Source of the DNA: a virus | Taxonomy: Duplodnaviria; Caudoviricetes | Strand: one strand, 5' to 3' | Length of the DNA: 25,343 nt | Virus record (IMG/VR): IMGVR_UViG_3300025015_000105 | Coordinates: 1 to 25,343 of that record | Shown here: piece by piece, positions 3 to 24,861 of the stretch | Numbering within the stretch: the stretch's first letter is position 1 | Layout of the letters: each line of letters begins with the position of its first letter | Translations under genes and position numbers: made by a program | The notes under the pieces: model-generated | The model's input: only the letters and a program-made list of their open reading frames with translations | Database searches by the model: none | Told to the model about the DNA's origin: nothing

Positions 3-539
3 GGTGGTAATGTGTTTGGTGGTCAATCAGTTAAAGATAATATTCCTGTAATGCTAACAAACGGTGAATATGTTATAAAAAAAGATACTGTAGATAAATT
101 TGGAAAAACTTTTTTTGATAATATAAATGCTGGTAAAAATCCAAGGGGTTATACGGGCGGGGGTTTAGTTAACCAGGATTATGGAATAAATAATAATACC
201 CAAAACTTCCAATACAATAATAGAATTATTTCTTTATTAGAGAGTATAAATGTTAATTTTTCTAATAATAGGGCGGAAAATGTTAATCAACCAAATAATA
301 ATGTTTCCGCCCCTATTGTTAATATAACTAATAATTTTAATATGGATAGAAGTGGAAATGTAACTTCTGATGCTAATGTTACTTCCAGTAACCAAAATGA
401 TAAAAACAAAAACAACAATAATGAAAAATCAGATCAAGAAAATTTACAAAAATTTGGAGATTTGATGCGTAATATTACTTTACAAGAGATTATTAAACAA
501 AATAAACCAGGAGGATTATTAAATATTAAATATGGATAA
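3..539 (+). CDS. Tail tape-measure-like protein, C-terminal part (5' truncated by the window edge)
   Basis: Frame is open from the window start (GGNVFGGQSVKDNIPVMLTNGEYVIKK...KFG..FF..IN.G...Y.GGGLV), the GG-x-DxVPxMLxxGEYV motif typical of tape-measure C-termini; ends with I.KQ.KPGGLL. Confidence 0.7.
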   Translation, partial: GGNVFGGQSVKDNIPVMLTNGEYVIKKDTVDKFGKTFFDNINAGKNPRGYTGGGLVNQDYGINNNTQNFQYNNRIISLLESINVNFSNNRAENVNQPNNNVSAPIVNITNNFNMDRSGNVTSDANVTSSNQNDKNKNNNNEKSDQENLQKFGDLMRNITLQEIIKQNKPGGLLNIKYG

Positions 540-574
540 TTCAACTTTTTAATAAGTAAATCAGATAATAAATA

Positions 575-1933
575 TTAAAAAATTAAAAATCCTTCCGAAA
601 CCCCCGTTTGATTAATATTTAATAATCCCGACATATAAAAACCTTTTTCAGTAAAATTCTCAGAATCTAATTCCACCCTAAATCCTATATTAGCTGTTTT
701 ACTAGGACCAATATCAGAAGAGTAAGAAATAGATTCAAATTTAGCTCTTTTGAAATCATATTGAACGGCGGTTCCTTGTGGCACAGCTTTTCTTGGCTGT
801 GCAATTTTAATAGCTATATTATAATCATCATTATTGTTTAAATAATTAGCTATACTTCCTGATTTCTCATCACCAACAATAGTATTAACTGTCAAATCAA
901 CATAACTCGGAAACGTTATTCTTCTATCCACAGGTAATCTATAACCCAAACTATTCAAAGCTTCTCTATTAAGAGGTAAATTGATATCATAAGATTGAAT
1001 TTTAATATCTGTGAAATCTACACCTAAATCTGGAATATCGATTCTCGATGTCCTTGAAAATCCCGTTCCAAAAATTGCCGAAACTCCAGTCAATTCTGGA
1101 AGAGCAGTAAAATTCATGGTAATATCTCCAGGAAGTAGAGCAGAAACTAATCCCGACCCCAAAAATGTAGTTGGTAAAGTGAATAAAACATTTCCAGTTG
1201 GTAATCTTGTTTTAGGATCTAAATATGGAGATAGAACCCCCGATCCTGACATATTAATTTGCATGTTTTCACAAATATAAGAAACGTTACATTTAGGAAA
1301 ATTACCCACAGAAGCATTAGTAGAATAATTAGTTAAATAACAATTTCCAAAAGAATAAGTATGTAACAATGGAGAATTAGGATCTATTCCAGAATAATAA
1401 AAATCATTATTTAAATCTTGTCCTTCGGGGGCAACGGCAATATATAAATTTCTCTTATCTTTTGATATAAAAGGATGTTGAGCCATAAACAATCCAGACC
1501 CTAAATCTATTTGTCTAGTATCAGATCTATCAACAAATCCCGATAAAATAAAAACCCCCGTATTATTAGTATATCTTGCTAATCCAGAATTTTGACCTAT
1601 TTCTATTGTATAATTAGTATTAAATCCTATTTCAAATTCATTGTAAACTCCATTTTGAAGATAATCTAAACTTAAATTTACTGTGGGCGGATCTATGATA
1701 GGTCGGGCAATTAAACCTAATTTGCCCAATTGCTTAACTTCTACTCTATTTATATTTACAGAATAATTAGCTGATTGAACTCTAGTAATAGGAGTAATTA
1801 AATTATGATTAGTTCCTGGGGCGGGAAAATCATTATTTAATATTCCGGCGCTATTAATTTGGTTATAACCGCTAGAATTATTGCCGCCAATATATACAGA
1901 CCAAATTTGATAAATTTCGCGATTACGACTCAT
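575..1933 (-). CDS. Putative virion structural protein (tail tube-like)
   Basis: 452 aa, beta-rich pattern (RVQSANYSVNINRVEVKQLG; IQSYDINLPLNREALNSLG), lies between portal and tape-measure genes. Family recalled, not searched. Confidence 0.5.
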   Translation of the reverse strand: MSRNREIYQIWSVYIGGNNSSGYNQINSAGILNNDFPAPGTNHNLITPITRVQSANYSVNINRVEVKQLGKLGLIARPIIDPPTVNLSLDYLQNGVYNEFEIGFNTNYTIEIGQNSGLARYTNNTGVFILSGFVDRSDTRQIDLGSGLFMAQHPFISKDKRNLYIAVAPEGQDLNNDFYYSGIDPNSPLLHTYSFGNCYLTNYSTNASVGNFPKCNVSYICENMQINMSGSGVLSPYLDPKTRLPTGNVLFTLPTTFLGSGLVSALLPGDITMNFTALPELTGVSAIFGTGFSRTSRIDIPDLGVDFTDIKIQSYDINLPLNREALNSLGYRLPVDRRITFPSYVDLTVNTIVGDEKSGSIANYLNNNDDYNIAIKIAQPRKAVPQGTAVQYDFKRAKFESISYSSDIGPSKTANIGFRVELDSENFTEKGFYMSGLLNINQTGVSEGFLIF

Positions 1934-4163
1934 TAATTATTTCTGTTTTACTATTTAATAATACCCCTGCTAAAAACTCATTAATTCCATGATTATAAGA
2001 TATTTCCCATTTTTCTTCATTTCTTTCTTCTACAATTTTATTATCTATGTTGTTTTTTAGATTGTTTAAATATCCTTTTACAATATTTTTATCCCCCCAA
2101 TTCTTTGGTTCTTCGTTAGTAATTATTAAATTAATTAAATCGTCTTTTGTTTCTTTTTGGGTAGCGTTTAATTCTTTTAATTTAAAGTCTTCTAATAATT
2201 CTGATTCTAACTCTTTATCTAATTTATCCGCTAATATCATATTGTCTTTTATTTTAGTTAAAGAATAAATTGTTTCAGATTCATCTTCGCCGCGAGATGT
2301 TCCAACAGGGCTAACTTTTTTAGTTGATTGCGGGGATCGGCTTCCTGCCGGACGCCCATTTGGACCTTTTAATTTAATATTTGGCGCATTTATATGTATT
2401 GCGGGCGGATTGGGAGGTGGTGGATTAGCCGCGTCATGTTTTCTTTGTTTATCTGATTGTTTAGTATCGTGTTCTTGTTGAGAATCCTGCAAACTCATTT
2501 GTTGTTTGCCCGCTTCTTTTGCTAATTTTAATTGATCAAATGGGGCGGCGGTAATAGGTTGATATAAACCTTTATCTTTGTATTCTCTAAATTTTTCTTG
2601 ACTTTCTAAACTTTCTTCTTTACTTGGTAATCTTCCAGTTTGAAATGCGGCTACTCCTTCTTCTGCTGTAAGTACACCTAGCTGAACAAGTTGTGCATAC
2701 AAACGTCCCCATATTGTTTCATCTTTCAAATTTAAATCTTCAAATTTAGGAGTGGGATAATTCTTAAATCCCATTATTAAAGAAATTCTTTTTATTTCAG
2801 GAATTAAAAATTCATTCAAAAATTGTTCGCGAATTTGTTTTAATCGTTCTATAAATATTTGAATTTTAATGGAGGTATTAGAAAATTTTTCACCATCTTG
2901 AGAATTAAATAAAATAGCATTTAAACCTTCGCGAATATCCCTGTCGACCACGGCATATTTAGCCTCATTTAATATATCTGCAATTTTTGGAATTACCCAC
3001 TCAGCTTTTGTCGAAAAATCTGATACTAAAACTCTTCCAATACTTTGATTTTGAAATAAAGTATTTAAAGCATCTAGGACTTTTTGATTAACCCCACCTT
3101 TATCAGGTTCATTTCCGTGAGTTACTAATAAAATAACATTTTGTAATGTTCTTATAATAGCTGCGTCAGCTTTCTTTAATTCGCTTTTATATTCTAAATC
3201 ATCTAAAATAGAATAGGTAAAAGGAATAGAAAAAGCCTCATAATCTTGTTTTTTATAAAACATTGTTGTTACTAAATCAGGATTTAATGGCAATAATATG
3301 CTAATAGATTTGTTTTTTATTAATTTTTTCGTTTCTTCTGGTAAACTATCATAAATTTCTTTATCTTCGGGTGTTTTAGGATTTTTTAATGCAGCAATTT
3401 CATAATCATTTAATTGTTTATATAAACTGTTAGTAGAGAACCACGCTCCTGATGTTATAGCTATCTGTGCAGAATCTAATACTATATATCTAATAGGCAA
3501 TTTAACTCCATATTTTGGTAATGTATCATCTTTCGCCCCAAATACTTGAGATATTTTTATCATTTCGGCGGGATTTACCGTTCCTTGCATTTTATAAATA
3601 TAAAGATTTCCCGATCTATAAAGTTCTCTAAAACATTGATCTTGTAAACTGTCCAAGTTTATTTTGTTAAATAGGGCGATAAAAAATTTCTTAGATTTTT
3701 CACTTCCACCCGTTAAAAACACTTTAGCACAAGAGAATTCAACCATAATTTCTATAACATTTCTCACAATTGAAAATCCAAAATATGCTTTTCTGCTTAA
3801 GATAACAACGTCTGTCATTGAAATATAATTAGTTCCTCCAATTCCACTGTATTTATAGGGTAATTTAATACTATCAATATTTATGAAACGATCTGAACGC
3901 TCAATCGTAGTTGCGCTATTTCTCCTAACAGAAGTAGACCCTCTTGTTTCTTCCATGTTAGAGGAAAGTGGCGTAATTTCTTGATTATTAACAAATTGTG
4001 TTAAAGAAACCACATTATTTTGGGCGGGCGACGGACGATTTCCTATAACAATTTCTCCATTATCAGATTTATAACCTTGTAATTGTCCGCGCTTATATTG
4101 TGAATAAATAGTTTGGTAACTTTTGTTCTGTTCTTTAGCAAATTCTGATAACGTTTTACTCAT
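1923..4163 (-). CDS. Putative portal protein with N-terminal HTH
   Basis: 746 aa with portal-like landmarks (AY..FSIVRNVIEIMVEFS; FRELYRSGNLYIY; IPFTYSILDDL; KY..VD.DI.EGL; P.PKFEDLNL), low-complexity Pro/Gln C-terminal linker, located near the terminase. Confidence 0.75.
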   Translation of the reverse strand: MSKTLSEFAKEQNKSYQTIYSQYKRGQLQGYKSDNGEIVIGNRPSPAQNNVVSLTQFVNNQEITPLSSNMEETRGSTSVRRNSATTIERSDRFINIDSIKLPYKYSGIGGTNYISMTDVVILSRKAYFGFSIVRNVIEIMVEFSCAKVFLTGGSEKSKKFFIALFNKINLDSLQDQCFRELYRSGNLYIYKMQGTVNPAEMIKISQVFGAKDDTLPKYGVKLPIRYIVLDSAQIAITSGAWFSTNSLYKQLNDYEIAALKNPKTPEDKEIYDSLPEETKKLIKNKSISILLPLNPDLVTTMFYKKQDYEAFSIPFTYSILDDLEYKSELKKADAAIIRTLQNVILLVTHGNEPDKGGVNQKVLDALNTLFQNQSIGRVLVSDFSTKAEWVIPKIADILNEAKYAVVDRDIREGLNAILFNSQDGEKFSNTSIKIQIFIERLKQIREQFLNEFLIPEIKRISLIMGFKNYPTPKFEDLNLKDETIWGRLYAQLVQLGVLTAEEGVAAFQTGRLPSKEESLESQEKFREYKDKGLYQPITAAPFDQLKLAKEAGKQQMSLQDSQQEHDTKQSDKQRKHDAANPPPPNPPAIHINAPNIKLKGPNGRPAGSRSPQSTKKVSPVGTSRGEDESETIYSLTKIKDNMILADKLDKELESELLEDFKLKELNATQKETKDDLINLIITNEEPKNWGDKNIVKGYLNNLKNNIDNKIVEERNEEKWEISYNHGINEFLAGVLLNSKTEIINES

Positions 4164-4171
4164 ATAAACAC

Positions 4172-4239
4172 TTTACACATAATTTTGCATAGTTTTGCAT
4201 AATTGTTTTTAATTTAAAAATTTATGCAATTTGTGTAAA
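4172..4239. promoter_or_regulatory. Divergent, near-symmetric control region with a TGTGTAAA motif facing each gene
   Basis: TTTACACA 4172-4179 (8 nt before the portal ATG) and TGTGTAAA 4232-4239; inner inverted repeat TTGCATAA 4195-4202 / TTATGCAA 4222-4229. Confidence 0.45.
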
Positions 4240-4258
4240 CAATATTAAATAAAAATCT

Positions 4259-4480
4259 ATGCCACTACCAGCGCCATCAAAAAAGCAAGACAAAAATTCA
4301 TTTATTTCTTCTTGTGTCTCGTCTGACGTAATGAAAAAAGAATTTCCAGATATGAAAAGGCGTTTAGCCGTATGTTTTTCGCAATTTAAAAGAAAAAAGA
4401 AACAAAAACAAGCTAATGGATTTAACGAAGATCCAACATGGAAAGAAGTAGAACAAGAACCAGTTTTATATTTAGATTAA
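4259..4480 (+). CDS. Small phage protein (MPLP..FISSC...M..EFPD...R.AVC.SQ type)
   Basis: 73 aa; motif resembles small proteins I recall next to phage head genes; function unknown. Confidence 0.65.
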   Translation: MPLPAPSKKQDKNSFISSCVSSDVMKKEFPDMKRRLAVCFSQFKRKKKQKQANGFNEDPTWKEVEQEPVLYLD

Positions 4481-4504
4481 TAAAAACAATCTTGAATTTA
4501 ATTT

Positions 4505-5401
4505 TTAAAAATTAAAACCTAAAAACTTAAGGCATTCTAATTTCTGTTCTGGTGTCAAATTTTTAGCACGAATTCCATTAGCAAGAAAATCATTTTTCTC
4601 TAAATTGTTTTTTTCCCATAATGGTTGAAAATTAGTATAATGAAAACATATTTTTTGTTGATTAAAATCTTTTAAATCAAATAGTTCTATTGGTAAAATA
4701 TGATCTAAATTCCATTTTCCGTTTCCTTTCCCCCAGTTTTGCCAATTCATTCCCGATTGCCATTTTTGTTGTATATATTTTTTAAAATCTTCAATAGAAA
4801 TTCCTAATAGTTTTATAGCTGAAGAATATTTATATCCATAAACTATAGATGCCCATAAAGACGTGCGCAAAGAACATTTTATTTTGTATCCAATATCATA
4901 TTTTTTTCTTTTTTCCAAATATTCTCTTACTCTTTTATTAATCAAATCTTTATTTTTTACTTTATATATTCTATAATATTGTTCGAAATTCTCTTTATGG
5001 AAATATCTATATTTTTTGCTTTTTTCTTTAATAATGCTAAAATTATTTTTACGATATTCGTAACACCTATTTAAAATACAATTTTTATTATCAATATAAT
5101 ATTGTTTCTTCTGTAATGAAATTTTATTTTTATTTGAATTTTTATATATATAATAACAATCTTTACATTCCACCCTTCCTTTATAAAAATATTTTATTGT
5201 TTTTAATGTTTTACATTTAGAACAAATCTTTTCAATTAAACCAATATGACTATTTCTATCTCTAGCTTTTCGATTATCACATAATTTACATAAAATTTTT
5301 CTATAAAACGTTCCAGATTTATTTTTGATTGTTGTTAATGTAAAATTTTCAATACTTTTTATTTGGCTACAAATTTTACATTGTTTATTTTCGTTAATCA
5401 T
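4505..5401 (-). CDS. HNH-type (endonuclease VII-like) homing endonuclease
   Basis: N-terminal CxxC pairs, basic helical linker, C-terminal GMNWQNWG..W.LDHI.PI..F......Q..CFHYTN.QPLW..NN..K. ATG at 5401 preferred over the TTG at 5428 that overlaps the upstream gene. Confidence 0.85.
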   Translation of the reverse strand: MINENKQCKICSQIKSIENFTLTTIKNKSGTFYRKILCKLCDNRKARDRNSHIGLIEKICSKCKTLKTIKYFYKGRVECKDCYYIYKNSNKNKISLQKKQYYIDNKNCILNRCYEYRKNNFSIIKEKSKKYRYFHKENFEQYYRIYKVKNKDLINKRVREYLEKRKKYDIGYKIKCSLRTSLWASIVYGYKYSSAIKLLGISIEDFKKYIQQKWQSGMNWQNWGKGNGKWNLDHILPIELFDLKDFNQQKICFHYTNFQPLWEKNNLEKNDFLANGIRAKNLTPEQKLECLKFLGFNF

Positions 5402-5412
5402 AATTTTTGTTT

Positions 5413-6342
5413 TTATAAATACTGGCAATTATAATAGTACTGTAAATCTATTTCCTTTATATCTCCCTTATATTTAAATATTTTATCAACTAATTTAATA
5501 GCTTCCCTTTTTCCATCTGAGCATAAAAACTGAATATTCAAAGGATATCTTTGTATTAAATCACGAATTCTAAAAAAAATATAATCGAATGAACAGCGAG
5601 TATACTTCATATACGGCAAAAATGGAAAAGATAATAACTTGTCGTATTTTTCTATTATAAGAATAATTAAATAATTATTATCATTTTTACACCTTTCTAT
5701 TTCTTGTGTAAATCTATTATATCCTTTTGATAATGTGGAAATTGCATCAGAAAGAGATTTTTTTTCTATATATATTTCATTGTTTTCCATAATAGAATAA
5801 TCTCCATAATTAAGTTTTTTTACCTTAAATTTTGGTATTTTTAAAATATTCTGCTCTCTTGTGTCACAAATATAATTTAGTTCTTTATTGTCATCAAATT
5901 CTAATTGTCTATTATAATTATACCTATTAATCAATCCAACTTCAGTGTTTATTCTATTGTAACTCCCCGCTCCAAATTCTTTTTCAAAATAAATAGGGGC
6001 GGGGATTATAAGACTTTTAGCCTCAAAAGTCGACAAAGCATATTTTAAGTTCTTTTTTTCCTTCCTTTTTAATAATAATTCTTTACAAAACGCCCATTTT
6101 TCTTCTTTAGTTTTTAATCCATCCAAATACATTCTTAAATTAACTCTAGAGATAAAATCTGTTAAAAAATAGTTTTCCTGGTTTTTAAATGATAATTGTT
6201 CGTGAGAAAATAAATCATATTTTGGGTGGTATTTTTCGTAATAATCTTTTATTTTTATTTTATGTATTTCCCAAGGGTGTTTTGTAGTAACTTGTTCGCC
6301 ACAAATTTGACAGGGTGGAATTAATAAAAAAGAACTTGACAT
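5413..6342 (-). CDS. ERCC4-domain nuclease with N-terminal C2H2-like Zn finger
   Basis: DTREQ...KL.YGDYS...IEKKSLSD..STL..G.NRF..EIER matches ERCC4/XPF nuclease motifs; CQIC...H...H at the N-terminus. Confidence 0.85.
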   Translation of the reverse strand: MSSSFLLIPPCQICGEQVTTKHPWEIHKIKIKDYYEKYHPKYDLFSHEQLSFKNQENYFLTDFISRVNLRMYLDGLKTKEEKWAFCKELLLKRKEKKNLKYALSTFEAKSLIIPAPIYFEKEFGAGSYNRINTEVGLINRYNYNRQLEFDDNKELNYICDTREQNILKIPKFKVKKLNYGDYSIMENNEIYIEKKSLSDAISTLSKGYNRFTQEIERCKNDNNYLIILIIEKYDKLLSFPFLPYMKYTRCSFDYIFFRIRDLIQRYPLNIQFLCSDGKREAIKLVDKIFKYKGDIKEIDLQYYYNCQYL

Positions 6343-6364
6343 CCTTAATTATTATAGATAAAAT
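6336..6364 (+). promoter_or_regulatory. sigma70-type promoter
   Basis: TTGACA (6336-6341), 17 nt, TAAAAT (6359-6364); ATG of the next gene 8 nt later. Confidence 0.65.
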
Positions 6365-6372
6365 ATAAAAAG

Positions 6373-6588
6373 ATGAAACAAAAACTTTCACATCAAAAAA
6401 AAGCATTAATTATGGCTATAAAAACATTAGAATTTTATGCAGACCCAAGCAATTATCATGCAATATCTATTGTATACGATTCGCCTGCTGGAAATTTTAT
6501 AAAAGATTTTGATTTTGTACCATATTATAATAGAAAAATGCCAGGAAAAATGGCGCGTAAAGCCCTATATAAAATACAAAAATTTTAA
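6373..6588 (+). CDS. Hypothetical protein
   Basis: 71 aa ORF directly behind the promoter; LEFYAD...G..AR.AL pattern common in phage small proteins. Confidence 0.7.
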   Translation: MKQKLSHQKKALIMAIKTLEFYADPSNYHAISIVYDSPAGNFIKDFDFVPYYNRKMPGKMARKALYKIQKF

Positions 6589-6597
6589 CATAAAAAT

Positions 6598-7035
6598 ATG
6601 AAAAGAGAAATAAAATTTAGAGTTTGGTCTAAAAAACATAGTCAATGGATGAATCATTGTGCGGTTATTGATTGTAATGGAAATATTGGTAGTCGTTTTA
6701 TTGAAGTTAAACCAAACCAAGAAATAGTTGAACATATCGTTAATTTATCGCCTGATGAAAATATAATTCAATTATTTACTGGTTTATTAGACAAAAACAA
6801 CAAACCAATTTATGAAGGTGATATAGTAGAATACAATAGTAAATGTGATATTACTTATAGTAAACCCGGAATTGTTTCAATTGGAGAATATTTTAATGGC
6901 GGCGGAACAGATAAAATTTATCATTATGGAGTAAGAGTAAAAAGATTAGATATGAAAGATTGTTATTTCGGACTAAACGAAAAAGATAAAAATTATTTAA
7001 TTATAGGAAATATATTTCAAAATCCAGAATTATAA
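6598..7035 (+). CDS. yopX: YopX family protein
   Basis: MKREIKFRVW ... QLFTGLLDKNNKPIYEGDIV ... IIGNIFQNPEL, the YopX signature. Confidence 0.9.
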   Translation: MKREIKFRVWSKKHSQWMNHCAVIDCNGNIGSRFIEVKPNQEIVEHIVNLSPDENIIQLFTGLLDKNNKPIYEGDIVEYNSKCDITYSKPGIVSIGEYFNGGGTDKIYHYGVRVKRLDMKDCYFGLNEKDKNYLIIGNIFQNPEL

Positions 7036-7253: not shown

Positions 7254-7254
7254 T

Positions 7255-17366: not shown

Positions 17367-17372
17367 CAAAAT

Positions 17373-17401
17373 ATCTTACCTAAAATCGCCCACCCTGTCA
17401 A
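17373..17401 (-). promoter_or_regulatory. sigma70-type promoter for the leftward accessory operon
   Basis: TTGACA, 17 nt, TAAGAT; ATG 6 nt downstream. Confidence 0.7.
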
Positions 17402-17462
17402 TAGAAAAATAATTTTATTTTTAACTAAAAAACAAAAATGATTTTATTTTACTTCCAGAATG

Positions 17463-17847: not shown

Positions 17848-17905
17848 AAGATTTAATGATTTTAGATATTGTGGATATGGAAATGGGTTCCCCGGCGGCG
17901 TGGCG

Positions 17906-17922
17906 AGCATGAATCGTGCCAA
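17906..17922 (-). promoter_or_regulatory. sigma54-like -24/-12 element
   Basis: Minus strand reads TTGGCACGATTCATGCT, i.e. GG-N10-GC, one mismatch from TTGGCACG-N4-TTGCW. Confidence 0.45.
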
Positions 17923-18134
17923 GCTTTTTACATAAACTGTGTCATTTTGGCACGCGCGTATTTGAGCAGATTTGCCCTTTCCTTTAATTAAACTTTGCTT
18001 CCCTTATCACCATAGCCAAAAAATTACTTTATCGATATTTATTGGCTTTTATCGATAAAATGAATTGTGACTTAGGCACCTTAAATCGGCGTATAAAGAG
18101 ATTTTTTGAATGAAAAATTTGATATATAGACACG

Positions 18135-18161
18135 AAAAAGCGGACTCTTATGAGTCCGCTT
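18135..18161 (-). terminator. Rho-independent terminator of the parB-like gene
   Basis: Minus strand AAGCGGACTC-ATAA-GAGTCCGCTT running into a T tract, 16 nt past the stop codon. Confidence 0.75.
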
Positions 18162-18177
18162 GTGTTAGATTGTTCGG

Positions 18178-19599
18178 CTAAATAGGCGTCTGATTTTCGC
18201 TTGCTGCTTGTAATACCGCTTTCTTAGCGTCAACTTCTTTGTGGATTTGATTCACAATAGATTTTTCAACATAGGGCGGAATTGCAGCGAAAGATTCGAT
18301 CCTTTGAGAGTCTTTTGATTTGCTTTGGAATTCTGCGCAACGAGTCAGCATTCCAATGAGTCCAGATTGTTCCGTCTCTGGCAGCAGACTTTCAACGCGA
18401 TTAATCATCAGGACTGTATCGCTCACAATCTGATTCGCCAAATGGCGAATATGCAGTAGTTCAGATAATTCCTCAATAGTCACAGTTGGTATTCTCTTGT
18501 CAATCGGACCTGATGAACTGCGAGAATTTGCAGACTTTTTCCGAAAATCAGCCAAGGTCTTTAAATTCTTGGCGTAAAGTTCTGCCTGCTTTACAGCTAT
18601 TTCATCGGCTTCCGTCTTGGCCGCTTCCGCCTTGGCCGCTTCCGCCTTGGCCGCTTCCGCCTTGGCCGCTTCCGCCTTGGCCGCTTCCGCCTTGACTTCA
18701 TTAGTGGGATCGTCATTGGCTGCTTTATCCGCTTCCGCCTTGGCCGCTTCCGCCTTGGCCGCTTCCGCCTTGGCCGCTTCATGAATTTTGGCCGCTTTTG
18801 CCTTGGCCGCTTCCGCCTTGGCCGCTTCCGCCTTGGCCGCTTCCGCCTTGGCCGCTTCCGCCTTGGCCGCTTCCGCCTTGGCCGCTTCCGCCTTGGCCGC
18901 TTCCGCTTTGGCCGTTTCCGCCTCGACCGCTTCCGCCTCGGCGGCATCGGCATCGATTTTGGATTTGAAATATTGAGAAAAGTCTGCCTTTGTAACGGAA
19001 ACCCCTTTCTCTAATTTTTCTTTCAGAAGTGCCCAAGCTTTATTCCAGTCACTTTGCTCTTTATGGTAGATTTCCAACGCCAATGTTGCGCTTAACTTTT
19101 CTGCCACTATGTGATCGACGATTTCTTCCGGGGCAGAAATAAGTGTTTGCAGCAGAGACACTTCTGTTTGTGTAATCTGCATTTTTTTTGCAATCTTTTT
19201 CGGTGTCCAACCGGCCTTAATTCTACGATCTACCAAGACCGCTTTCTCCATGCGCGTCAAATTTTTAGCATGTAAGTTGGATCTATAAAGATCCATTTCG
19301 TAATCTTCTTCTGTCCACTCCTTTGGACAGATTACGCATTCCACTTCTTCGATTGGAATACCATTTTTTTTCGCCAATTGGAAGGCGAAAAATCTTCGAT
19401 GTCCCCTTACCAAGATCAAAGTCCCGTCTGATTCTTGGCGAAGCCAGAGCCTTTCCATTCCTTTTATCCCATTAACTTTAATGTCCTTGGCAATCTCGTC
19501 AACGTTGCCATAGTCTAATCGGACGTTGTAACCATCCTTAATCGCAATGTCGGTTAATTTAATTTTGTGAATCTCGCTTTCGTTCAGTAATGTCGTCAT
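18178..19599 (-). CDS. parB: ParB/Spo0J-like protein with (AEAAK)n helical repeat
   Basis: NVR.DYG...EIA.DI..NG ... LVRGHRRFFA (GxRR motif), LT.MEKA ... GW....IAKK.......VS HTH; no parA in the window. Confidence 0.85.
   Translation of the reverse strand: MTTLLNESEIHKIKLTDIAIKDGYNVRLDYGNVDEIAKDIKVNGIKGMERLWLRQESDGTLILVRGHRRFFAFQLAKKNGIPIEEVECVICPKEWTEEDYEMDLYRSNLHAKNLTRMEKAVLVDRRIKAGWTPKKIAKKMQITQTEVSLLQTLISAPEEIVDHIVAEKLSATLALEIYHKEQSDWNKAWALLKEKLEKGVSVTKADFSQYFKSKIDADAAEAEAVEAETAKAEAAKAEAAKAEAAKAEAAKAEAAKAEAAKAEAAKAKAAKIHEAAKAEAAKAEAAKAEADKAANDDPTNEVKAEAAKAEAAKAEAAKAEAAKAEAAKTEADEIAVKQAELYAKNLKTLADFRKKSANSRSSSGPIDKRIPTVTIEELSELLHIRHLANQIVSDTVLMINRVESLLPETEQSGLIGMLTRCAEFQSKSKDSQRIESFAAIPPYVEKSIVNQIHKEVDAKKAVLQAASENQTPI
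18616..18921 (-). repeat. 15-bp coding tandem repeat GCGGAAGCGGCCAAG (AEAAK)
   Basis: Perfect blocks of 5 (18616-18690), 2 (18739-18768) and 7 (18802-18906) units, plus degenerate copies. Confidence 0.95.
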
Positions 19600-19625
19600 A
19601 ACTTTATTTTTCTTTCTTTGTTTTT

Positions 19626-19883
19626 TTATTTTGTTTTTTTTATCCGATCACTAGGATGTAACTCATCCTGGTAATCCCGCCAATCGGCGAGAGTTACCGA
19701 ATCCTTCATTTCTTCTTCGTAACACGCCACCTTCGTCATCAGAGCATACTGCTCCTTAATCTTTTCTTCTTTGCTTTTTTTCGTTACTGGTTTTCTCATA
19801 TATCCTTTTTCTCTAACGTCGTTCCTATTGTCGACTGGTTTTTCTTTATCTAATATCATTTTTTTTGTTTTCTGTTTTTTCAT
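19626..19883 (-). CDS. Hypothetical protein
   Basis: ORF upstream of parB; ATG 19883 preferred because ATG 19892 lies inside the -10 box. The true start could be further downstream. Confidence 0.55.
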   Translation of the reverse strand: MKKQKTKKMILDKEKPVDNRNDVREKGYMRKPVTKKSKEEKIKEQYALMTKVACYEEEMKDSVTLADWRDYQDELHPSDRIKKTK

Positions 19884-19890
19884 TGTCAAC

Positions 19891-19919
19891 ATCTTAACTC
19901 ATTAACTCCTAAAAGTCAA
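19891..19919 (-). promoter_or_regulatory. sigma70-type early promoter
   Basis: TTGACT, 17 nt, TAAGAT. Confidence 0.7.
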
Positions 19920-20055
19920 TAAATCTTTTTTTTTCTCAAAACAATTTTTTTCATTCTCTTGTATCCTGGTGAACTAAGATTTTTTTTCTAAAAAACATTT
20001 TCCAACTCTAGCTATATATACTGTCTTCATTTTCTAAAACCAATCCTAAGTGTTT

Positions 20056-20127
20056 TAATCATGATTGAAATAATCATGATTGATTTAGTCAAGATTCAAA
20101 TTTTTTCTAAGTTAAAATCTGACTAAA
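20056..20127. repeat. Tandem palindromes and an inverted repeat (operator-like)
   Basis: TAATCATGATTGA at 20056 and 20071; TTTAGTCAAGATT (20084-20096) pairs imperfectly with AATCTGACTAAA (20116-20127). Confidence 0.5.
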
Positions 20128-20274
20128 ACAATCAAGATTAGGGCGGGTTAAACAAAATCCTTAACCCTGAAATAGAAAGTTTTAGAAAAAATAAAATCTT
20201 TTTACGTGTGTTACCTTATTACGCCCAAAGTCATTAAACTTTGACTTTTTTGTTTTTCTTATATTGTGTTATTA

Positions 20275-20478
20275 TTATATATTATTTAAAAAATTAAGAG
20301 AATTAAGAGAATTTCTAAAATTTTTAATATTCCATTTCTCCTTTTTTATCTTGAATTTTTTGATATCCGTATTAAGGATATCTGCTATTTTTTTTACTTC
20401 TTCTTTAATTCCAGTTTTATCACCAGAAAGGTAAAAAGTAATTTGAAAATTATCAAGACTAGGAATTTTTTTGTTCAT
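20275..20478 (-). CDS. Hypothetical protein
   Basis: 67 aa behind its own promoter. Confidence 0.65.
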   Translation of the reverse strand: MNKKIPSLDNFQITFYLSGDKTGIKEEVKKIADILNTDIKKFKIKKEKWNIKNFRNSLNSLNFLNNI

Positions 20479-20510
20479 ATTTTTTTTACTTAATTTTCTT
20501 AACTCCTTAC

Positions 20511-20539
20511 ATATTAAGATATTAAGTACTAAAAGTCAA
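20511..20539 (-). promoter_or_regulatory. sigma70-type early promoter
   Basis: TTGACT, 17 nt, TAATAT. Confidence 0.7.
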
Positions 20540-20723
20540 TACTTTTCTTTTTCTTTATTTTTTCTAAATTTCTTAAAAGTTTTACAATCTTCTCACTTTG
20601 TTTTACAATTTTTCTATTTTTGTATTTTATTCTTTGGCTAGTAAAAAAAATTCTGACACTAACCAAACCTATTTCTAAATAATTTGCCAAGATTGTTAAA
20701 ACCAAATAAATCTTTCTAAACAT
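20529..20723 (-). CDS. Hypothetical protein, possibly membrane-associated
   Basis: 64 aa, hydrophobic N-terminal half; 3' end overlaps the next -35 box. Confidence 0.55.
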   Translation of the reverse strand: MFRKIYLVLTILANYLEIGLVSVRIFFTSQRIKYKNRKIVKQSEKIVKLLRNLEKIKKKKSIDF

Positions 20724-20764
20724 AATTCTTCTTTCGTTACACCATATTTCTTTGTTTAATAAGG

Positions 20765-20797
20765 TTTCCGCCCCAAGTATTTAATTTGGGGCGGAAA
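20765..20797. repeat. Perfect 12-bp inverted repeat (hairpin)
   Basis: TTTCCGCCCCAA-N9-TTGGGGCGGAAA. Confidence 0.8.
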
Positions 20798-20815
20798 ATG
20801 AGGATTCTGGCGGGT

Positions 20816-21046
20816 TTACTGAATTCTCCTTATAGAAATTGTTTTGGATTGCAGAGCATACCACTCCGCAGAATCATGACAATTTGTCGCAGAGGTCGCA
20901 TCAAAAATTCTGCAACCAATTGTTGTCAATCCAACGACTTTTCCCGATTTAATAATTTCAGTCTTTTTTTCAGACTGTTTAATTGCCATTACAAAATCCC
21001 CGATTTTTACATCGGAACCATTAACTGTCACAGTCTTATTTACCAT
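20816..21046 (-). CDS. Hypothetical protein (SH3-like beta pattern)
   Basis: 76 aa, A-rich leader AAAAAAAATTATG. Confidence 0.7.
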   Translation of the reverse strand: MVNKTVTVNGSDVKIGDFVMAIKQSEKKTEIIKSGKVVGLTTIGCRIFDATSATNCHDSAEWYALQSKTISIRRIQ

Positions 21047-21091
21047 AATTTTTTTTGTTTTACTGATTTTTTATTTTACTGAAATTTTATT

Positions 21092-21283
21092 TTACTGAAA
21101 TTTTGAATAATTTTTGCAATTCTTATTACAATAAATATTTCCACACGTTGCGATTTGTGCAGTCTTCTGTTTGCCCGTGAACCATTGGAAATGGCCACAA
21201 TTGAGACGGATTCTCCACAAACACCCACCGCCATGAATTAGTTTGATTTTTTCAAATTTTTTTTGTATCTCTTTCATTCTCAA
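21092..21283 (-). CDS. Small Cys/His-rich hypothetical protein
   Basis: LNCGH...TCGNIYC. Confidence 0.6.
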   Translation of the reverse strand: MRMKEIQKKFEKIKLIHGGGCLWRIRLNCGHFQWFTGKQKTAQIATCGNIYCNKNCKNYSKFQ

Positions 21284-21297
21284 TATCTTAAAAAATA

Positions 21298-21525
21298 TTA
21301 ATTATTTTGAAAATTATTTTTCAAAATATACTTCTGTCCTTTCCCTATTCCAAGCCCAACTCCGTATTTTGCAAAACAATCTGTGCAAAGATTTGCCCAC
21401 GAGCCAAACGAAGTTTTGCAATCGTAAATGACTTTAGTATCGTTCTTACATATTTCGCAAACGCTATCTTTCGAAAATTCCTTCCCCGACATACTTCCGC
21501 CGTCTTCTTGTATATATGTTGCCAT
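21298..21525 (-). CDS. Small phage Zn-binding protein
   Basis: CEIC.....YD.KT..GSWANLC.DCF...GVGLG.G.GQKY. Confidence 0.75.
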   Translation of the reverse strand: MATYIQEDGGSMSGKEFSKDSVCEICKNDTKVIYDCKTSFGSWANLCTDCFAKYGVGLGIGKGQKYILKNNFQNN

Positions 21526-21563
21526 AATTTTTTTTGTTAGTTGTCTTACTTAATTCTCCTTAT

Positions 21564-21592
21564 ATCCTAACATATTAACTCCTAAAAGTCAA
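21564..21592 (-). promoter_or_regulatory. sigma70-type early promoter
   Basis: TTGACT, 17 nt, TAGGAT; shares 22 identical bp with the promoter at 19.9 kb. Confidence 0.7.
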
Positions 21593-21629
21593 TAAGTTTA
21601 AAAAATAAATAGAACAAACTAAAAACGAT

Positions 21630-21866
21630 TTAAAGAAAAAAATCTTCACCGTAATGATACTCCTCTGGGAAGTTGTCATTCCTTAAAAAACTTACAACCT
21701 TAATCCCTGTGTCGTAGGGATTTTGCCCCACCAACTTCTTATGAGTATCTAAAAATCTTTCAATAATTTCAATTGAAAGATTTTTGTAATTCTTGATTAA
21801 ATTTTTTGCTTCAGAATGGGTATTAACTAATCTTTTAGATCCGGCGGGATTAGATATGTTTATCAT
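21630..21866 (-). CDS. Hypothetical protein
   Basis: 78 aa, A-rich leader. Confidence 0.65.
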   Translation of the reverse strand: MINISNPAGSKRLVNTHSEAKNLIKNYKNLSIEIIERFLDTHKKLVGQNPYDTGIKVVSFLRNDNFPEEYHYGEDFFL

Positions 21867-21878
21867 ATATTTTTTTGA

Positions 21879-22082
21879 TTAAAAATTTTTGTCGTTTCCG
21901 ACAATTTCCGAAACTATAAACCCTTGTTTTCTTAAAGATTCTGCCATTCTTACTTTATGTTGGGCGGATTTTAGGTTTTTCATAAGCTTAGTATTATTTT
22001 GAAAAGTAGAGGAATTTTCTCCAATCCCCCGCTTTGTGGCTTCTAAAACCACATTTTCAGCAATGGTAAAAACAACAAACAT
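21879..22082 (-). CDS. Hypothetical protein
   Basis: 67 aa. Confidence 0.65.
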   Translation of the reverse strand: MFVVFTIAENVVLEATKRGIGENSSTFQNNTKLMKNLKSAQHKVRMAESLRKQGFIVSEIVGNDKNF

Positions 22083-22167
22083 AATTTTAATGATTAAGAA
22101 ATTCTTCTTTCATTTATTTTATCCCCAACTTCCAAACTTTTTTTGTTTTCTTTTTTTTACTATACTG

Positions 22168-22198
22168 ATTATAAACATAAATAACTATTAAAAGTCAA
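22168..22198 (-). promoter_or_regulatory. Possible early promoter with a suboptimal spacer
   Basis: TTGACTTTTA as in the other copies, but TATAAT is 19 nt away. Confidence 0.4.
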
Positions 22199-22199
22199 T

Positions 22200-22361
22200 T
22201 TAATTATTATTTATTTTATATTCTAATTCGTAAATTTTTGCAAAAGAATGACTTCCAAAAATAATTTTATGATGCAAAGACCAGTCATAAAATCTATCTT
22301 GACAGAAATTAAAACAATCCATGTATGTCCAATCATCTGGAAAATAAACAATAAATATCAT
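22200..22361 (-). CDS. Small hypothetical protein (53 aa, not in the ORF track)
   Basis: MIFIVYFPDDWTYMDCFNFCQDRFYDWSLHHKIIFGSHSFAKIYELEYKINNN*. Confidence 0.55.
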   Translation of the reverse strand: MIFIVYFPDDWTYMDCFNFCQDRFYDWSLHHKIIFGSHSFAKIYELEYKINNN

Positions 22362-22378
22362 ATTTTTATTTTTTTTAT

Positions 22379-22705
22379 TTAAATAACTTTTTTACTTAAT
22401 AATTTTGTTTTTAATTGTTCTATATAGCATTTTTTACAAAGACTTTGGTTTTCTCTATATATTATTATTTCATTCCAACATTCTGAACAAGTCCCACGCT
22501 TTCTTTTTTTTTGAGATTATAATTTTTTTGAATCTTTTCGTTTTTCTTTATTGTGTTTTTTGAAACAATCTGGACATCTTTTATTTCCAATAGGGCGGGG
22601 ATTATTACAATTAATACAATTAAGATTTTTAATTTTATATTGCCTTTTAGTTTTATGAACAGCTTTGATTATTTCTGCTAAATCCTTTTTGCTTTTTATT
22701 TTCAT
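22379..22705 (-). pseudogene. Tandem Zn-finger protein interrupted by one in-frame TAA
   Basis: ORF 22517-22705 (CINC..CPDC) continues in frame past the TAA for 45 codons with a second CSEC..CKKC finger. Confidence 0.55.
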
Positions 22706-22851
22706 GATATGGTTTACATAAAAATAATGTTAATCATCGATTGCAACACAGGACACAATTCTATTTACCCCTGTACAAAAATGACTTTGATAAAAAAAAA
22801 TATCAAAAAAAGCCAATGAAATGACTCTTTTTGATTGCAACACAGTATTTT

Positions 22852-23079
22852 TCAATCCCTTAAAAGAAAAAAAATCTCTGTGTTTTCCCAGTTCACTGAC
22901 ATAGGAGTTATACTTATTTCTTCTTTTATTTCTTTTTTTTCTGTTTTTTGTTCTAAATTTTTAAGGATTTGTGCGGCGCATTGGCCACAAATTCCGTGGC
23001 TTATTTGACCGTCATAGCCACGAATTTTTAGAATTTTTGGAAACAAATGGTGAAGATTCCAATTACAAATTGTTGTCAT
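22852..23079 (-). CDS. Hypothetical protein (ISHGICxxC motif)
   Basis: 75 aa, ATGA-coupled start. Confidence 0.65.
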   Translation of the reverse strand: MTTICNWNLHHLFPKILKIRGYDGQISHGICGQCAAQILKNLEQKTEKKEIKEEISITPMSVNWENTEIFFLLRD

Positions 23080-23198
23080 AATTCAACAAATTCTAATCCA
23101 TTTTTGTCATAGACAACAAAAAATGAAAATGAAAATTCATATTCTTTCAATATAAAAATCATATTTTCCCATGTCATAAACGGAATGTAGATGCTCAT
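23076..23198 (-). CDS. Small hypothetical protein
   Basis: The track start (TTG 23264) is the -35 box; ATG 23198 with an A-rich leader is preferred. Confidence 0.5.
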   Translation of the reverse strand: MSIYIPFMTWENMIFILKEYEFSFSFFVVYDKNGLEFVEL

Positions 23199-23235
23199 AA
23201 ATTTTTTTGTAAGTTTTTCTCTTTCAACTAGATAC

Positions 23236-23264
23236 ATTATATAATAAAAATTCCTAAAAGTCAA
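23236..23264 (-). promoter_or_regulatory. sigma70-type early promoter
   Basis: TTGACT, 17 nt, TATAAT. Confidence 0.75.
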
Positions 23265-23311
23265 ACATTATTATTTTTTTTTATTTTTGATAAATTTTGT
23301 TTTTTTAATTA

Positions 23312-23396
23312 CAACTGTCGATTTTTGAACACGGTGTATAAAAAGCTACAATAACTTCAACTGTCGATTTTTGACCACACTGTATAAAAAGAGACA
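23312..23396 (+). repeat. Two imperfect 39-bp direct repeats, 46-bp period
   Basis: CAACTGTCGATTTTTGAACACGGTGTATAAAAAGCTACA and CAACTGTCGATTTTTGACCACACTGTATAAAAAGAGACA. Confidence 0.85.
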
Positions 23397-23867
23397 GTTA
23401 ATTACTATTAAAGAGAAAAAAATCAAAGAAAACACAAAAATCTTTTTATTTAATTAAAAAAAAATAAATACATTATATTTACCTTATATTTACCTTATAT
23501 TTACATCTTATATTATCTTCTATCCTTATTCAACTCCGTTATTATTTCTACCTTCTTTTTTTTTCTCTTTTAACTTTTTTAATCCCTTACTAACGAGAAT
23601 ATTACATTATTTTTTTTTATTTTTTTATTTTTATTTATTTATTCTATTTTAATTTTTATACAATTAAAACAATTTTATGTTTTATATCCCTTATAATTCA
23701 TATACATACAAAACCATGCCTTATTTCGCCCAAGCCTATTCAATTTTGGGTTTTTGTTTTAATAGGGGCGGGAATAGAAAAACCCCCAAAAGGTTATTAT
23801 TCTTTGGGGCGGGATGGGAAATATTCATAAAATCATAAATAAAGATATTTATGATTATTTATGATAA

Positions 23868-24110
23868 TTATACTGGCAAAATAAATACTTTTTTAGGATT
23901 TATTCTTTTTCGCGGAATTATTTCAATTTTGTCATACACAGAAATTCCACAGTCTTGTAAAAAGGAAATTAAATCCTTTGTTGTTCTGGAATAATAATAT
24001 CTTTTCTGCCGACCTCTTTGCATTATTATTTCCCAACACTCTTCTTCTTCTGCCTTACCACGAATTTTCAGCAAGGCAAATCTATCGTGCTTTGATATTT
24101 TTTTAATCAT
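23868..24110 (-). CDS. Hypothetical protein
   Basis: 80 aa. Confidence 0.65.
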   Translation of the reverse strand: MIKKISKHDRFALLKIRGKAEEEECWEIIMQRGRQKRYYYSRTTKDLISFLQDCGISVYDKIEIIPRKRINPKKVFILPV

Positions 24111-24119
24111 AAATGTTTT

Positions 24120-24314
24120 CTAGTTAAAATTAATTGAATATTTTCCAACCGATAATGCAGACATCAATTTTTCGTCCATATTATCTAAATTTCCTTTCAA
24201 ATTTTTTCTAATTAAATTTTTTATTTCTGCCTCAGTTTCAGTCATAGTTATTTCCCTATTTAAACCGTAATGTAATCTAATTTTTCTTTGGGCGGTTTTT
24301 AATATTTTAGTCAT
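24120..24314 (-). CDS. Hypothetical protein
   Basis: 64 aa, overlaps the upstream stop. Confidence 0.65.
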   Translation of the reverse strand: MTKILKTAQRKIRLHYGLNREITMTETEAEIKNLIRKNLKGNLDNMDEKLMSALSVGKYSINFN

Positions 24315-24612
24315 ATTTATTATATTGTTTTATTTTTGATACTGTAATAAAATTTTCTCTTATTCTTTTAAAAAAATTATCTTTTTGTTCCGCCCTAACC
24401 ATATTAAGAAAATATTCTTTATTATCATAAACATCGGGAAAACTATCTACATTTCTTTTAGGTGTTTTAAACACCTTGGGCGTTATTGCCACTATTCTCA
24501 AAGGAGAATTTTTAAGAACAATAACACCAAAAGAATCAAATAAATCTTTTTTGTTATAGACTATTTGACTTACATGATATCCGTATTTGGACTGACATTG
24601 TTCAATTTTCAT
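24307..24612 (-). CDS. Hypothetical protein
   Basis: 101 aa. Confidence 0.7.
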   Translation of the reverse strand: MKIEQCQSKYGYHVSQIVYNKKDLFDSFGVIVLKNSPLRIVAITPKVFKTPKRNVDSFPDVYDNKEYFLNMVRAEQKDNFFKRIRENFITVSKIKQYNKYD

Positions 24613-24618
24613 AATTCT

Positions 24619-24861
24619 TTACTTTTGTTCCATATCTAGGGCGGTTTGGCAAACTAACCGTCTATTGATTTGTCTATTATCAAATCCCATCAAGTTAGGG
24701 CGGGCTTTATTCGATAAAGCAATAGCTAAATCTAAAATCTTTAAAAAATCATTTTTATCCAAAAAATATTTTGGATTTAATTTTTCGTGGCTTAGAAAAT
24801 TAGCCCAAATATCGATAGTGCTTTTCATTTTTTTTATTTGAGTGTCGTTATTGATTATCAC
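24619..24861 (-). CDS. Hypothetical protein
   Basis: 80 aa, GTG start, first gene after the promoter at 24.9 kb. Confidence 0.6.
   Translation of the reverse strand: MIINNDTQIKKMKSTIDIWANFLSHEKLNPKYFLDKNDFLKILDLAIALSNKARPNLMGFDNRQINRRLVCQTALDMEQK

Follow-up and report, generated by a model that had tools for sequence, protein, structure and literature searches.

GGGCGG, a dispersed DNA-level word in an AT-rich groundwater phage and a possible Chi-like signal

Why would an AT-rich phage carry one and the same all-GC hexamer about once in every 600 bases? The question is raised by a stretch of 25,343 nucleotides, here called the window, from a large, uncultured phage from groundwater, ~85% of whose genome lies outside this stretch. 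The window has a GC content of 27.5% and contains GGGCGG or its complement CCGCCC 41 times in 25.3 kb, a density of 1.6 per kb. A preliminary description had listed 25 and 16 positions for the two orientations, and all of them match a recount.

155..24703, plus strand: GGGCGG, 25 copies, at 155, 271, 1685, 1819, 2403, 2543, 4022, 5997, 9470, 10301, 12494, 13266, 15072, 15497, 17121, 18274, 20141, 20789, 21962, 22593, 23766, 23807, 24290, 24639 and 24698
307..24395, minus strand: GGGCGG, read as CCGCCC, 16 copies, at 307, 7693, 8325, 8601, 10819, 13360, 13440, 13445, 15432, 16251, 16409, 17007, 17042, 17498, 20768 and 24390
17121..23812, either strand: the 7 non-coding copies, outside the gene set used, at 17121, 17498, 20141, 20768, 20789, 23766 and 23807, 3 of them in short doubtful ORFs

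Base composition alone predicts 0.34 copies; the figure of ~0.2 given earlier was somewhat low, while the strong excess over chance that it expressed stands. An order-2 Markov model predicts 3.3 copies, and GGGCGG is the first-ranking hexamer under this null and under synonymous shuffling alike. When the ParB-like gene is left aside, 33 coding copies are found against 2.9 expected from a per-gene synonymous shuffle (maximum 9 in 500) and 1.2 from a pooled one (maximum 5). A shuffle that additionally keeps the codon-junction context gives 31 against 3.9 for an automatic ORF set (maximum 10 in 300). The excess over synonymous shuffles is thus 11- to 28-fold in coding DNA, and it is ~100-fold in the 4,044 bp of non-coding DNA, with 7 copies against 0.07. 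Since the excess survives every Markov and codon-shuffled null, neither base composition nor codon usage nor the junctions between codons can account for it. The 34 coding copies are spread over all six frames (CCGCCC 7, 9 and 3; GGGCGG 2, 7 and 6). Together with the synonymous shuffles and the non-coding excess, this upholds the earlier view of a frame-independent constraint at the DNA level. Other all-GC hexamers, which would be equally frequent if the word were nothing special, are frequent only when they overlap GGGCGG or the repeat of the ParB-like gene. An out-of-sample test is offered by contig L001, which represents the same phage (99.9% identity) and reaches 1,112 bp past the window, where it has 3 further copies. 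Altogether, these observations point to a constraint acting on the DNA. The reading preferred here, at a probability of roughly 0.4, is that GGGCGG is recognised, in the manner of Chi, by a helicase-nuclease of the host or of the phage.

Within the proteins, the word occupies 42% of the places where the amino acid sequence permits it. Four genes of the window bear on its distribution or on its possible readers.

1923..4163, minus strand: probable portal protein, so assigned by its location and size; its N-terminus carries an HTH-like extension (~4010-4163), and it is a weakly disfavoured candidate for the reader
7610..9526, minus strand: terminase large subunit, with copies in 4 of the 10 places permitted
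13210..13554, minus strand: SLOG-family gene, 4 copies in 5 permitted places, those at 13440 and 13445 overlapping in tandem
18178..19599, minus strand: ParB-like gene with an Ala/Glu/Lys repeat and GC3 0.48, with a copy in 1 of the 2 places permitted; a disfavoured candidate for the reader

The absence of copies from the HNH gene and the single copy in the GC-richest stretch, both pointed out before, are real and carry little information, as the HNH gene has 0 copies in 1 permitted place and the ParB-like gene 1 in 2. Across the whole window proteome Pro-Pro occurs 14 times against 6.6 expected, with no excess of Arg-Pro or Gly-Arg, and a comparison of the terminase with 30 homologues reveals no rewriting of peptides.

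The variant spectrum, compared with that of shuffled sequences, reveals a strict core in which positions 2, 3 and 5 are fixed, position 4 is C or T and the ends are looser. Variants at positions 3 and 5 are near background, and of those at position 4 GGGTGG alone is enriched, being the commonest one-mismatch variant. Its earlier count is the same on recount.

2..17395, either strand: GGGTGG or CCACCC, 14 copies, 11 of them coding against 2.9 expected

The 5′ flank of GGGCGG is T-rich (position -2, z 3.6). The phage shows no enrichment of AGCGG (9 vs 11), and the trinucleotide GCG occurs 243 times in the window.

Models of methylation with biased repair or conversion have been proposed for HIP1, and GGGCGG could similarly be the footprint of cytosine methylation combined with biased repair or gene conversion. 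GGGTGG is the deamination product expected from a methylated C in the G-rich strand, and GGGCGG has no strand preference. Moreover, one of the two complete distant relatives examined, G001, encodes a C5 methyltransferase, and in both of them, G001 and G002, a small nuclease-like gene adjoins a RecA-like gene; to us this nuclease looks Vsr-like, while Pfam offers only DUF2726 (E 0.02). However, GGGCAG, the product of deamination on the opposite strand, is missing from coding DNA (0 vs 2.2 expected), and G001 has 20 copies of GGGCGG against 16 expected, i.e., no excess, in spite of its methyltransferase. G002 encodes none of three methyltransferase families and nevertheless has a genome-wide excess of TGCGG (539 vs 281). 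In addition, the words of HIP1-like systems are palindromic, whereas GGGCGG is asymmetric, and repair acting at a single position would hardly fix four strict ones. The footprint, one of three options in the preliminary description, thus finds little support, given the four strict inner positions and the lack of a methyltransferase among the 32 of 88 window ORFs that were scanned, and is considered very unlikely.

Both strands are used about equally, as the orientation ratio is 27:17 in the window and the L001 extension together (p 0.17-0.21). The copies are randomly rather than evenly spaced (CV 0.95 vs 0.96), and neither helical phasing nor regular spacing is found in the window. Only one pair of copies was noted to be opposed so as to form a hairpin.

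20765..20797, strand not assigned: opposed GGGCGG pair, a perfect inverted repeat whose 14-pair stem has a folding energy of -14.2 kcal/mol as DNA (z -6.3) and does not figure among the listed terminators

A repeat element, a promoter or a terminator is ruled out, since the flanks vary, 34 of the 41 copies are coding and only this pair folds. Likewise, with 34 of 41 copies coding and a single hairpin, the pattern of a stem and U-run after genes, as in intrinsic terminators and uptake-sequence hairpins, is not found. GGGCGG is not part of any terminator-like site detected between 16.9 and 25.3 kb.

Uptake sequences often lie in terminators. This bears on the idea that a word similar in kind to uptake sequences or HIP1 is hyper-abundant in the host, whose machinery writes it into any resident DNA, and that the phage shares it passively. 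As far as the accessible text goes, DNA uptake sequences resemble GGGCGG in their frame-independent saturation, lack of strand bias, graded near-matches and effect on peptides, and the 42% saturation, the excess of Pro-Pro and related peptides and the near-matches seen here recall the drive described for them (PMC1939737). On the other hand, only a single hairpin pair is present and no terminator-like site in the region surveyed uses the word, and for the window phage there is no sign of a prophage state or of a host; a host search in GTDB contigs gave no match, the protein clusters carried no names and the atlas taxa did not point to a host. Uptake sequences and HIP1 are, in the descriptions available, cellular chromosomal words of 8-10 bases, that of HIP1 being palindromic, in contrast to the non-palindromic phage hexamer. 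This is the least probable of the readings weighed here.

For the comparison with relatives, the terminase large subunit served as the marker with which they were found and a tree was built. Terminases P0008, P0018, P0020, P0031, P0039 and P0045 of this clade are borne by contigs of 160-216 kb, and that of the window by one of 47 kb. The exact hexamer is nearly lineage-specific, as most relatives lack an enrichment; this goes against the expectation that related phages would share the word, which holds for its five-base core GGCGG in the nearest clade. In five closer relatives GGCGG is found 126 times against 61.7 expected, about twofold and in all six frames, with no general same-codon-pair excess in these relatives (513 vs 536). 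The core is a clade trait. Its ratio is highest in the window (8.8), L149 (3.9) and L151 (2.3), and amounts to 1.8-2.2 in L145, L147 and L150, L147 taken alone being weak (20 vs 14, rank 23 of 512). Two outer lineages have a GGCGG O/E of 2.1. In L151, with 51% terminase identity, GGGCGG is absent altogether. The sites themselves are not conserved by position, since those of five genes are not retained in L149 or L151. Among 18 distant lineages the excess of GGCGG is 1.3-fold (335 vs 260). The GCGG excess of distant relatives is discounted, because part of it can be explained by compensation for restriction-site avoidance: CCGG is missing in G001, G003, G006, G007 and G008 and GCGC in G002, whereas the window and the near clade contain both. 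A scan of IMG/VR with a two-copy pattern returned 6 loci, 5 of them without strong excess and the sixth, L162, an unrelated small element; scans with the right-end gene and a tape-measure fragment returned no further contig of the window phage. No strain difference falls inside a copy among the 40 listed of 246, where only ~0.7 would be expected, so that this comparison carries no weight. Two soil-labelled runs yielded only short pieces, of at most 523 bases among those tabulated, and no habitat is deduced from them. In the main texts of the literature covered, which included few subscription journals, no account was found of GGGCGG in phages or of this phage family.

The density of GGCGG is held at 1.4-2.5 per kb across the clade despite a GC content ranging from 27 to 42%. 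Such constancy would suit a word at which a DnaG-type primase encoded by the phage preferentially starts its primers; this primase was not among the options of the preliminary description. The G-C-G core with its G/T-rich 5′ side would yield primers pppGCCC, or pppACCC from GGGTGG, and one site per ~1.2 kb per strand would come near Okazaki spacing, with sites on both strands as forks run both ways. G001 and G002 encode a DnaG-like primase beside DnaB, with an N-terminal domain without zinc-binding cysteines, and G002 encodes DnaE as well. The putative initiating base is only C or T, as befits a pyrimidine position, with a strict G on each side, and the T-rich 5′ flank fits too. In the portions of the sources available, the T7 and NrS-1 primase sites are G/T-rich and continue with G, pyrimidine and purine, as GGGCGG does, the T7 site (G/T)2GTC having the same shape (PMC12839067; PMC7102993). 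Known primase sites are, however, barely enriched: in T7 the enrichment of pentamers does not exceed 1.6-fold, and in NrS-1 the 8-nt site occurs just twice according to the accessible text (PMC7102993). Okazaki length is reportedly independent of site number, as far as that source could be consulted (PMC12839067). Furthermore, a primase reading a trinucleotide has no shortage of sites with 243 GCG, the GGGCGG copies are not evenly spaced, and the window stops short of the replication region and does not contain the primase gene of this phage. Priming is therefore regarded as unlikely.

A dispersed site for a DNA-binding protein of the phage, serving packaging, compaction or anti-silencing, was also proposed, with the HTH-like head of the portal, the 406-aa protein, ParB or an unseen protein as candidate binders; it is quite improbable. 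The three lineages with the HTH-like portal head, i.e., the window phage, L149 and L151, also rank first to third in GGCGG ratio; the sequence of the head varies from one to another, and so do the flanks of their words. Of the 150 portal clusters listed, 25 have the head, and the one opposed pair of copies is a perfect inverted repeat. However, the head is missing in L145, L148 and L150, which belong to lineages with a GGCGG excess, and ratios of 1.8-2.2 are nevertheless reached in L145, L147 and L150; the portal as reader is thus weakly disfavoured. Searches with the head in Pfam and PDB sequences gave no identification, nor did the whole portal protein match Pfam or PHROGs. The copies show neither helical phasing nor regular spacing. 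ParB, another candidate named earlier, is an unlikely reader because it probably arrived after GGGCGG had accumulated, judging from its foreign composition (GC3 0.48 vs about 0.10-0.25 in most genes) and the lack of a homologue in the related loci compared; a search detected no longer homologue beyond its own cluster. ParB/parS sites are few, clustered, palindromic and about 16 bp long, unlike the 41 randomly spaced, asymmetric hexamers scattered over the window. Upstream of the ParB-like gene lies a cluster of palindromic repeats, which would be a more natural site.

The Chi-like reading, a candidate only, is the best supported of the three options that had been put forward. Like a Chi site, GGGCGG is short, asymmetric and G-rich, and in excess beyond codon usage (33 vs 1.2-2.9 in coding and 7 vs 0.07 in non-coding DNA). 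In the parts of the reports available, the Chi-rich phages P1, LLS and MD8 share such a word with enriched one-mismatch relatives (PMC12315714; PMC3784561), and LLS has 23 Chi sites against 0.85 by chance, ~27-fold, Chi being its top k-mer of that length (PMC12315714). The AddAB hosts B. subtilis (AGCGG) and S. aureus (GAAGCGG) have equally short sites with the same 3′ GCGG core, and the pair GGCGG/GGTGG parallels GCTGGCGG/GCTGGTGG, as described in the accessible text (10.1101/2020.08.13.249359). In P1, Chi lies on both strands (31:19), as does GGGCGG (27:17). The lambdoid phages differ in that their Chi is polarised (20/23 in LLS and 32/32 in MD8, in the text available; PMC12315714; PMC3784561). 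Prophage-type SPbetaL5 has AGCGG polarised 23:1 without net excess. Chi of LLS and P1 has 8 bases and 0.53 sites per kb, against 6 bases and a three times higher density here, and, unlike in Chi-rich phages, GGGCGG draws on GC-ending codons, which are rare in this genome of 27% GC. The O/E of GCGG is 0.46-1.09 in T7, T5, NrS-1, SPbetaL5 and one Clostridioides phage, and slightly raised in PhiSepi-HH3 (1.16); T5 has no Chi excess within the 50 kb tested. Chi-rich phages are mostly without a Rec module, whereas genes for a RecA-like protein and for a PD-(D/E)XK nuclease are present in both distant relatives, G001 and G002; of the best 120 of 658 RecA-like matches, none could be tied to the window's clade. 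The lack of clear polarisation, the high density, the RecA-like and nuclease genes of distant relatives, the absence of GGGCGG from L151, the weak signal of L147, the O/E of 2.1 in two outer lineages and the T5 result all weaken the Chi reading.

If GGGCGG is a Chi-like signal, it would be read by a RecBCD/AddAB-type helicase-nuclease of the host, or by the PD-(D/E)XK nuclease of the family, during degradation from an end or a break. Degradation would stop at the site and leave a recombinogenic end, which may help circularisation, concatemer formation or survival of cuts. Because an AT-rich genome has almost no sites by chance (0.34 per 25 kb), selection would have to build them wherever Gly, Pro, Ala or Arg codons permit, and conversion during repair, favouring site-bearing alleles, may add to this. 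Both orientations would be useful if genome ends are permuted, as in P1, and the differing flanks in sister lineages would mirror different hosts or a drifting reader.

A GC-rich signal so far above background in an AT-rich phage could serve to uncover the Chi words used by uncultured groups of hosts and aid in host assignment. If the reader is an enzyme of the phage, the word would represent a novel type of signal for self-recognition or replication. It is suggested, tentatively and with more doubt than confidence, that the phages of an undescribed family, roughly 200 kb in size, write a self-signal for an enzyme of their own, either the zinc-less DnaG-type primase or the adjoining PD-(D/E)XK nuclease. 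The word would co-evolve with this enzyme, being GGGCGG here and TGGCGGC in L151, and would be strong enough in the most AT-rich lineage to fill 42% of the permitted sites and to shift proteins. The related words of the clade are a natural test of such co-evolution between reader and word. As a caution, codon and peptide usage in such phages is set in part by signals at the DNA level. If the self-signal is real, it would amount either to a Chi system encoded by the phage itself or to the first demonstrated case of a primase site moulding a genome.

The preliminary description listed 41 copies of GGGCGG or its complement CCGCCC in the window, and every position proved correct on recount; base composition predicts 0.34 copies and an order-2 model 3.3. 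The enrichment survives synonymous shuffling of 47 hand-chosen genes (the ParB-like gene left out), with 33 coding copies against 2.9 or 1.2 expected, and under a stricter codon shuffle that keeps the junction context the count is 31 against 3.9. Non-coding DNA holds 7 copies against 0.07. Among all-GC hexamers, 16 of 36 classes have zero copies. The proteins permit the hexamer at 79 places, 33 of which (42%) are filled. Some peptides occur more often than expected in the window: Pro-Pro 14 times against 6.6, [SPTA]A[LPHQR] 18 times against 9.0, and Gly-Gly 26 times against 17.1. Neither Arg-Pro nor Gly-Arg shows this, and the terminase alone has no excess of these peptides over 30 homologues. 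A second locus of the same phage (L001, 99.9% identity) extends the window by 1,112 bp and adds three copies.

The anatomy of the word follows from its one-mismatch variants in coding DNA. Those at the 5′ end (CGGCGG, 8 vs. 1.5; TGGCGG, 8 vs. 3.4), at position 4 (GGGTGG, 11 vs. 2.9) and at the 3′ end (GGGCGA, 4 vs. 1.4; GGGCGT, 6 vs. 2.0) exceed expectation, and those at positions 2, 3 and 5 number 0–3 each, about as expected. GGGCGG therefore has a strict core, C or T at position 4 and loose ends; next to it, G is preferred on both sides (-1, +1) and T one base further 5′ (-2). Both this variant spectrum and the density of the word would suit a primase site. However, it fails two positive controls: the enrichment of T7 primase pentamers does not exceed 1.6-fold, and phage NrS-1 has two copies of its own primase site (PMC7102993). 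A primase site is therefore unlikely, although it leads the alternatives. A methylation footprint would account for GGGTGG but leaves four strict positions unexplained, and is less probable still. Among the five records searched, one C5 methyltransferase was found, in the complete distant relative G001, and no N6/N4 or D12 methyltransferase; G001 has no GGGCGG excess. Plus- and minus-strand copies of the word stand at 25:16 in the window, or 27:17 once the L001 extension is counted (p 0.17), and 15 coding copies lie on the coding strand and 19 on the template strand. Spacing in the window is random, without helical phase, and a single opposed pair forms a hairpin that is not terminator-like.

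Terminase and portal scans yielded loci L001–L156 and L163–L213, of which 120 were 10 kb or longer and carried a terminase; these reduced to 22 lineages, and L150 (8.4 kb) was added by hand. The expected recurrence of the word in relatives holds for the core, GGCGG, in the nearest clade and fails for the exact hexamer in distant relatives. Three complete distant genomes have 29, 81 and 11 copies of GGGCGG against 35, 89 and 12 of reversed-word controls. Locus L149 is mildly enriched (5 vs. 0.6) and L151 has zero copies. The GGCGG excess tracks the clade of the window, L149, L151, L145 and L147 (support 100/100), with which L150, outside the tree, was grouped by 46% identity. The ratios are 8.8, 3.9, 2.3, 2.2, 1.8 and 2.1, respectively, and 0.7–2.1 in 18 outer lineages. 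Pooled, the five clade relatives have 126 copies against 61.7, with all six frames represented, and the outer lineages 335 against 260; L147 by itself is weak (rank 23 of 512). The excess in clade relatives is mostly GGCGGC/CGGCGG, and other same-codon pairs show none there (513 vs. 536). Since site positions are not conserved among relatives, flanks differ and the clade shares the core, the word turns over site by site, with drifting flanks and a persisting core. That it is a host word passively inherited is the least probable of the named explanations. The DNA-level force proposed in the preliminary description is borne out by the shuffled and non-coding counts; it is inherited within the clade, strand-neutral and sequence-specific, and acts across the region.

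Other preferences were seen as well. Across its whole locus the sister lineage L151 prefers TGGCGGC, almost without GGGCG (3 of 124 GGCG have a preceding G); GGG is scarce overall in this locus, and its preference is opposite to that of the window. A distant lineage (L152–L156) prefers TGGCGCT with a T-rich 5′ flank (in L154, GGCGCT 20 vs. 3.6). L162 (1-6046) is a 6-kb, unrelated element; by our reading its ends match and one of its ORFs is integrase-like. It holds 17 GGGCGG copies, six of which cluster at 2547-2849 as (A/G)GGGCGGAAA and are perhaps iterons.

GGGCGG might also be a dispersed protein-binding site; two candidate readers in the window, and a repeat cluster upstream of the gene of one of them, are:

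4010-4163, minus strand: HTH-like head of about 45 residues at the start of the probable portal protein
18178-19599, minus strand: ParB-like gene with a long Ala-Glu-Ala-Ala-Lys repeat and a GC3 of 0.48
20037-20140: inverted-repeat cluster upstream of the ParB-like gene

The portal head presumably recalls MerR/IS607-type heads. It has no match in Pfam or PDB sequence searches, and occurs in L149, L151 and 25 of 150 among the portal clusters listed. The ParB-like protein has no homologue in related loci, and its gene is apparently a recent acquisition. Against a dispersed site stand the foreign composition of ParB and the lineages without a portal head, and we place its likelihood between those of a primase site and a methylation footprint. 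In the repeat cluster, the palindrome ATCATGAT occurs twice (20058 and 20073), with no other copy in the window; the cluster is a candidate operator, parS-like site or origin.

The window itself is a tailed-phage fragment (25.3 kb, 27.5% GC) from groundwater-labelled runs, encoding a terminase large subunit, a tape-measure end, an ERCC4-type nuclease, a sigma-70-like factor, DHFR, cupin, SLOG and ParB-like proteins. As homologous terminases (50–56% identity) sit on contigs of up to 216 kb, we infer that the genome is close to 200 kb long and that the window covers ~13% of it. Near-consensus sigma-70 promoters starting TTGACT precede several small genes at 19891-24930 (minus strand), resembling an early-gene array. 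A weak NCBIfam match to a secretion needle-tip family at 15650-16036 (minus strand; E 0.002; 17.5 bits, where the cut-off is 219) is probably a coiled-coil chance match. The literature searched holds no account of the GGGCGG word in phages, nor of this phage family.

In G002, a complete relative, a scan covering 119 of its 202 larger ORFs identified DnaE, DnaB, a RecA-like protein, a DnaG-like primase and a PD-(D/E)XK nuclease. The corresponding primase, nuclease, helicase-like and RecA-like genes are present in G001. None of the best 120 of 658 RecA-like hits could be linked to the clade of the window. The primase (L240:10001-11128; L241:1393-2427) lacks the zinc-binding-domain cysteines, its N-terminus aligning weakly with that domain. 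A small nuclease-like gene with only a weak DUF2726 match adjoins the RecA-like gene in G002 (L240:7841-8245), and a G001 gene is placed similarly. Certain restriction-type sites are missing altogether from coding DNA: CCGG in five records (G001, G003, G006, G007, G008), and GATC and GCGC in G002. The TGCGG excess of G002 (539 vs. 281) may in part make up for the total absence of GCGC there.

A Chi-like helicase-nuclease signal with a putative reader is ranked first, at a probability of roughly 0.40, on three grounds. Firstly, to our knowledge no cause other than Chi has been documented for an asymmetric, G-rich word being enriched in this way in phages. Secondly, known Chi words match the GGGCGG core (10.1101/2020.08.13.249359). 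Thirdly, P1 is a precedent for two strands, its 50 Chi sites (31:19, orientations interspersed) resembling the 27:17 found here; in contrast, LLS (23 sites vs. 0.85 by chance, 20 sharing one orientation) and MD8 (32 sites, single orientation throughout) are strongly one-oriented, and the median Chi O/E of Rec-minus lambdoids is 3.1 (PMC12315714 and PMC3784561; LLS, PMC12315714). The absence of polarity therefore counts against Chi of the lambdoid type, not against that of the P1 type. In 50 kb of SPbetaL5, B. subtilis Chi is polarised 23:1 without net excess, and none of the Chi-type words examined in T5, PhiSepi-HH3 and a Clostridioides phage is in excess. Against a Chi-like signal stand the high density of the word and the recombination genes that the family itself encodes; the probability left over is assigned to causes not thought of. 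Classed by resemblance, the enrichment of GGGCGG would behave in this phage like that of Chi.
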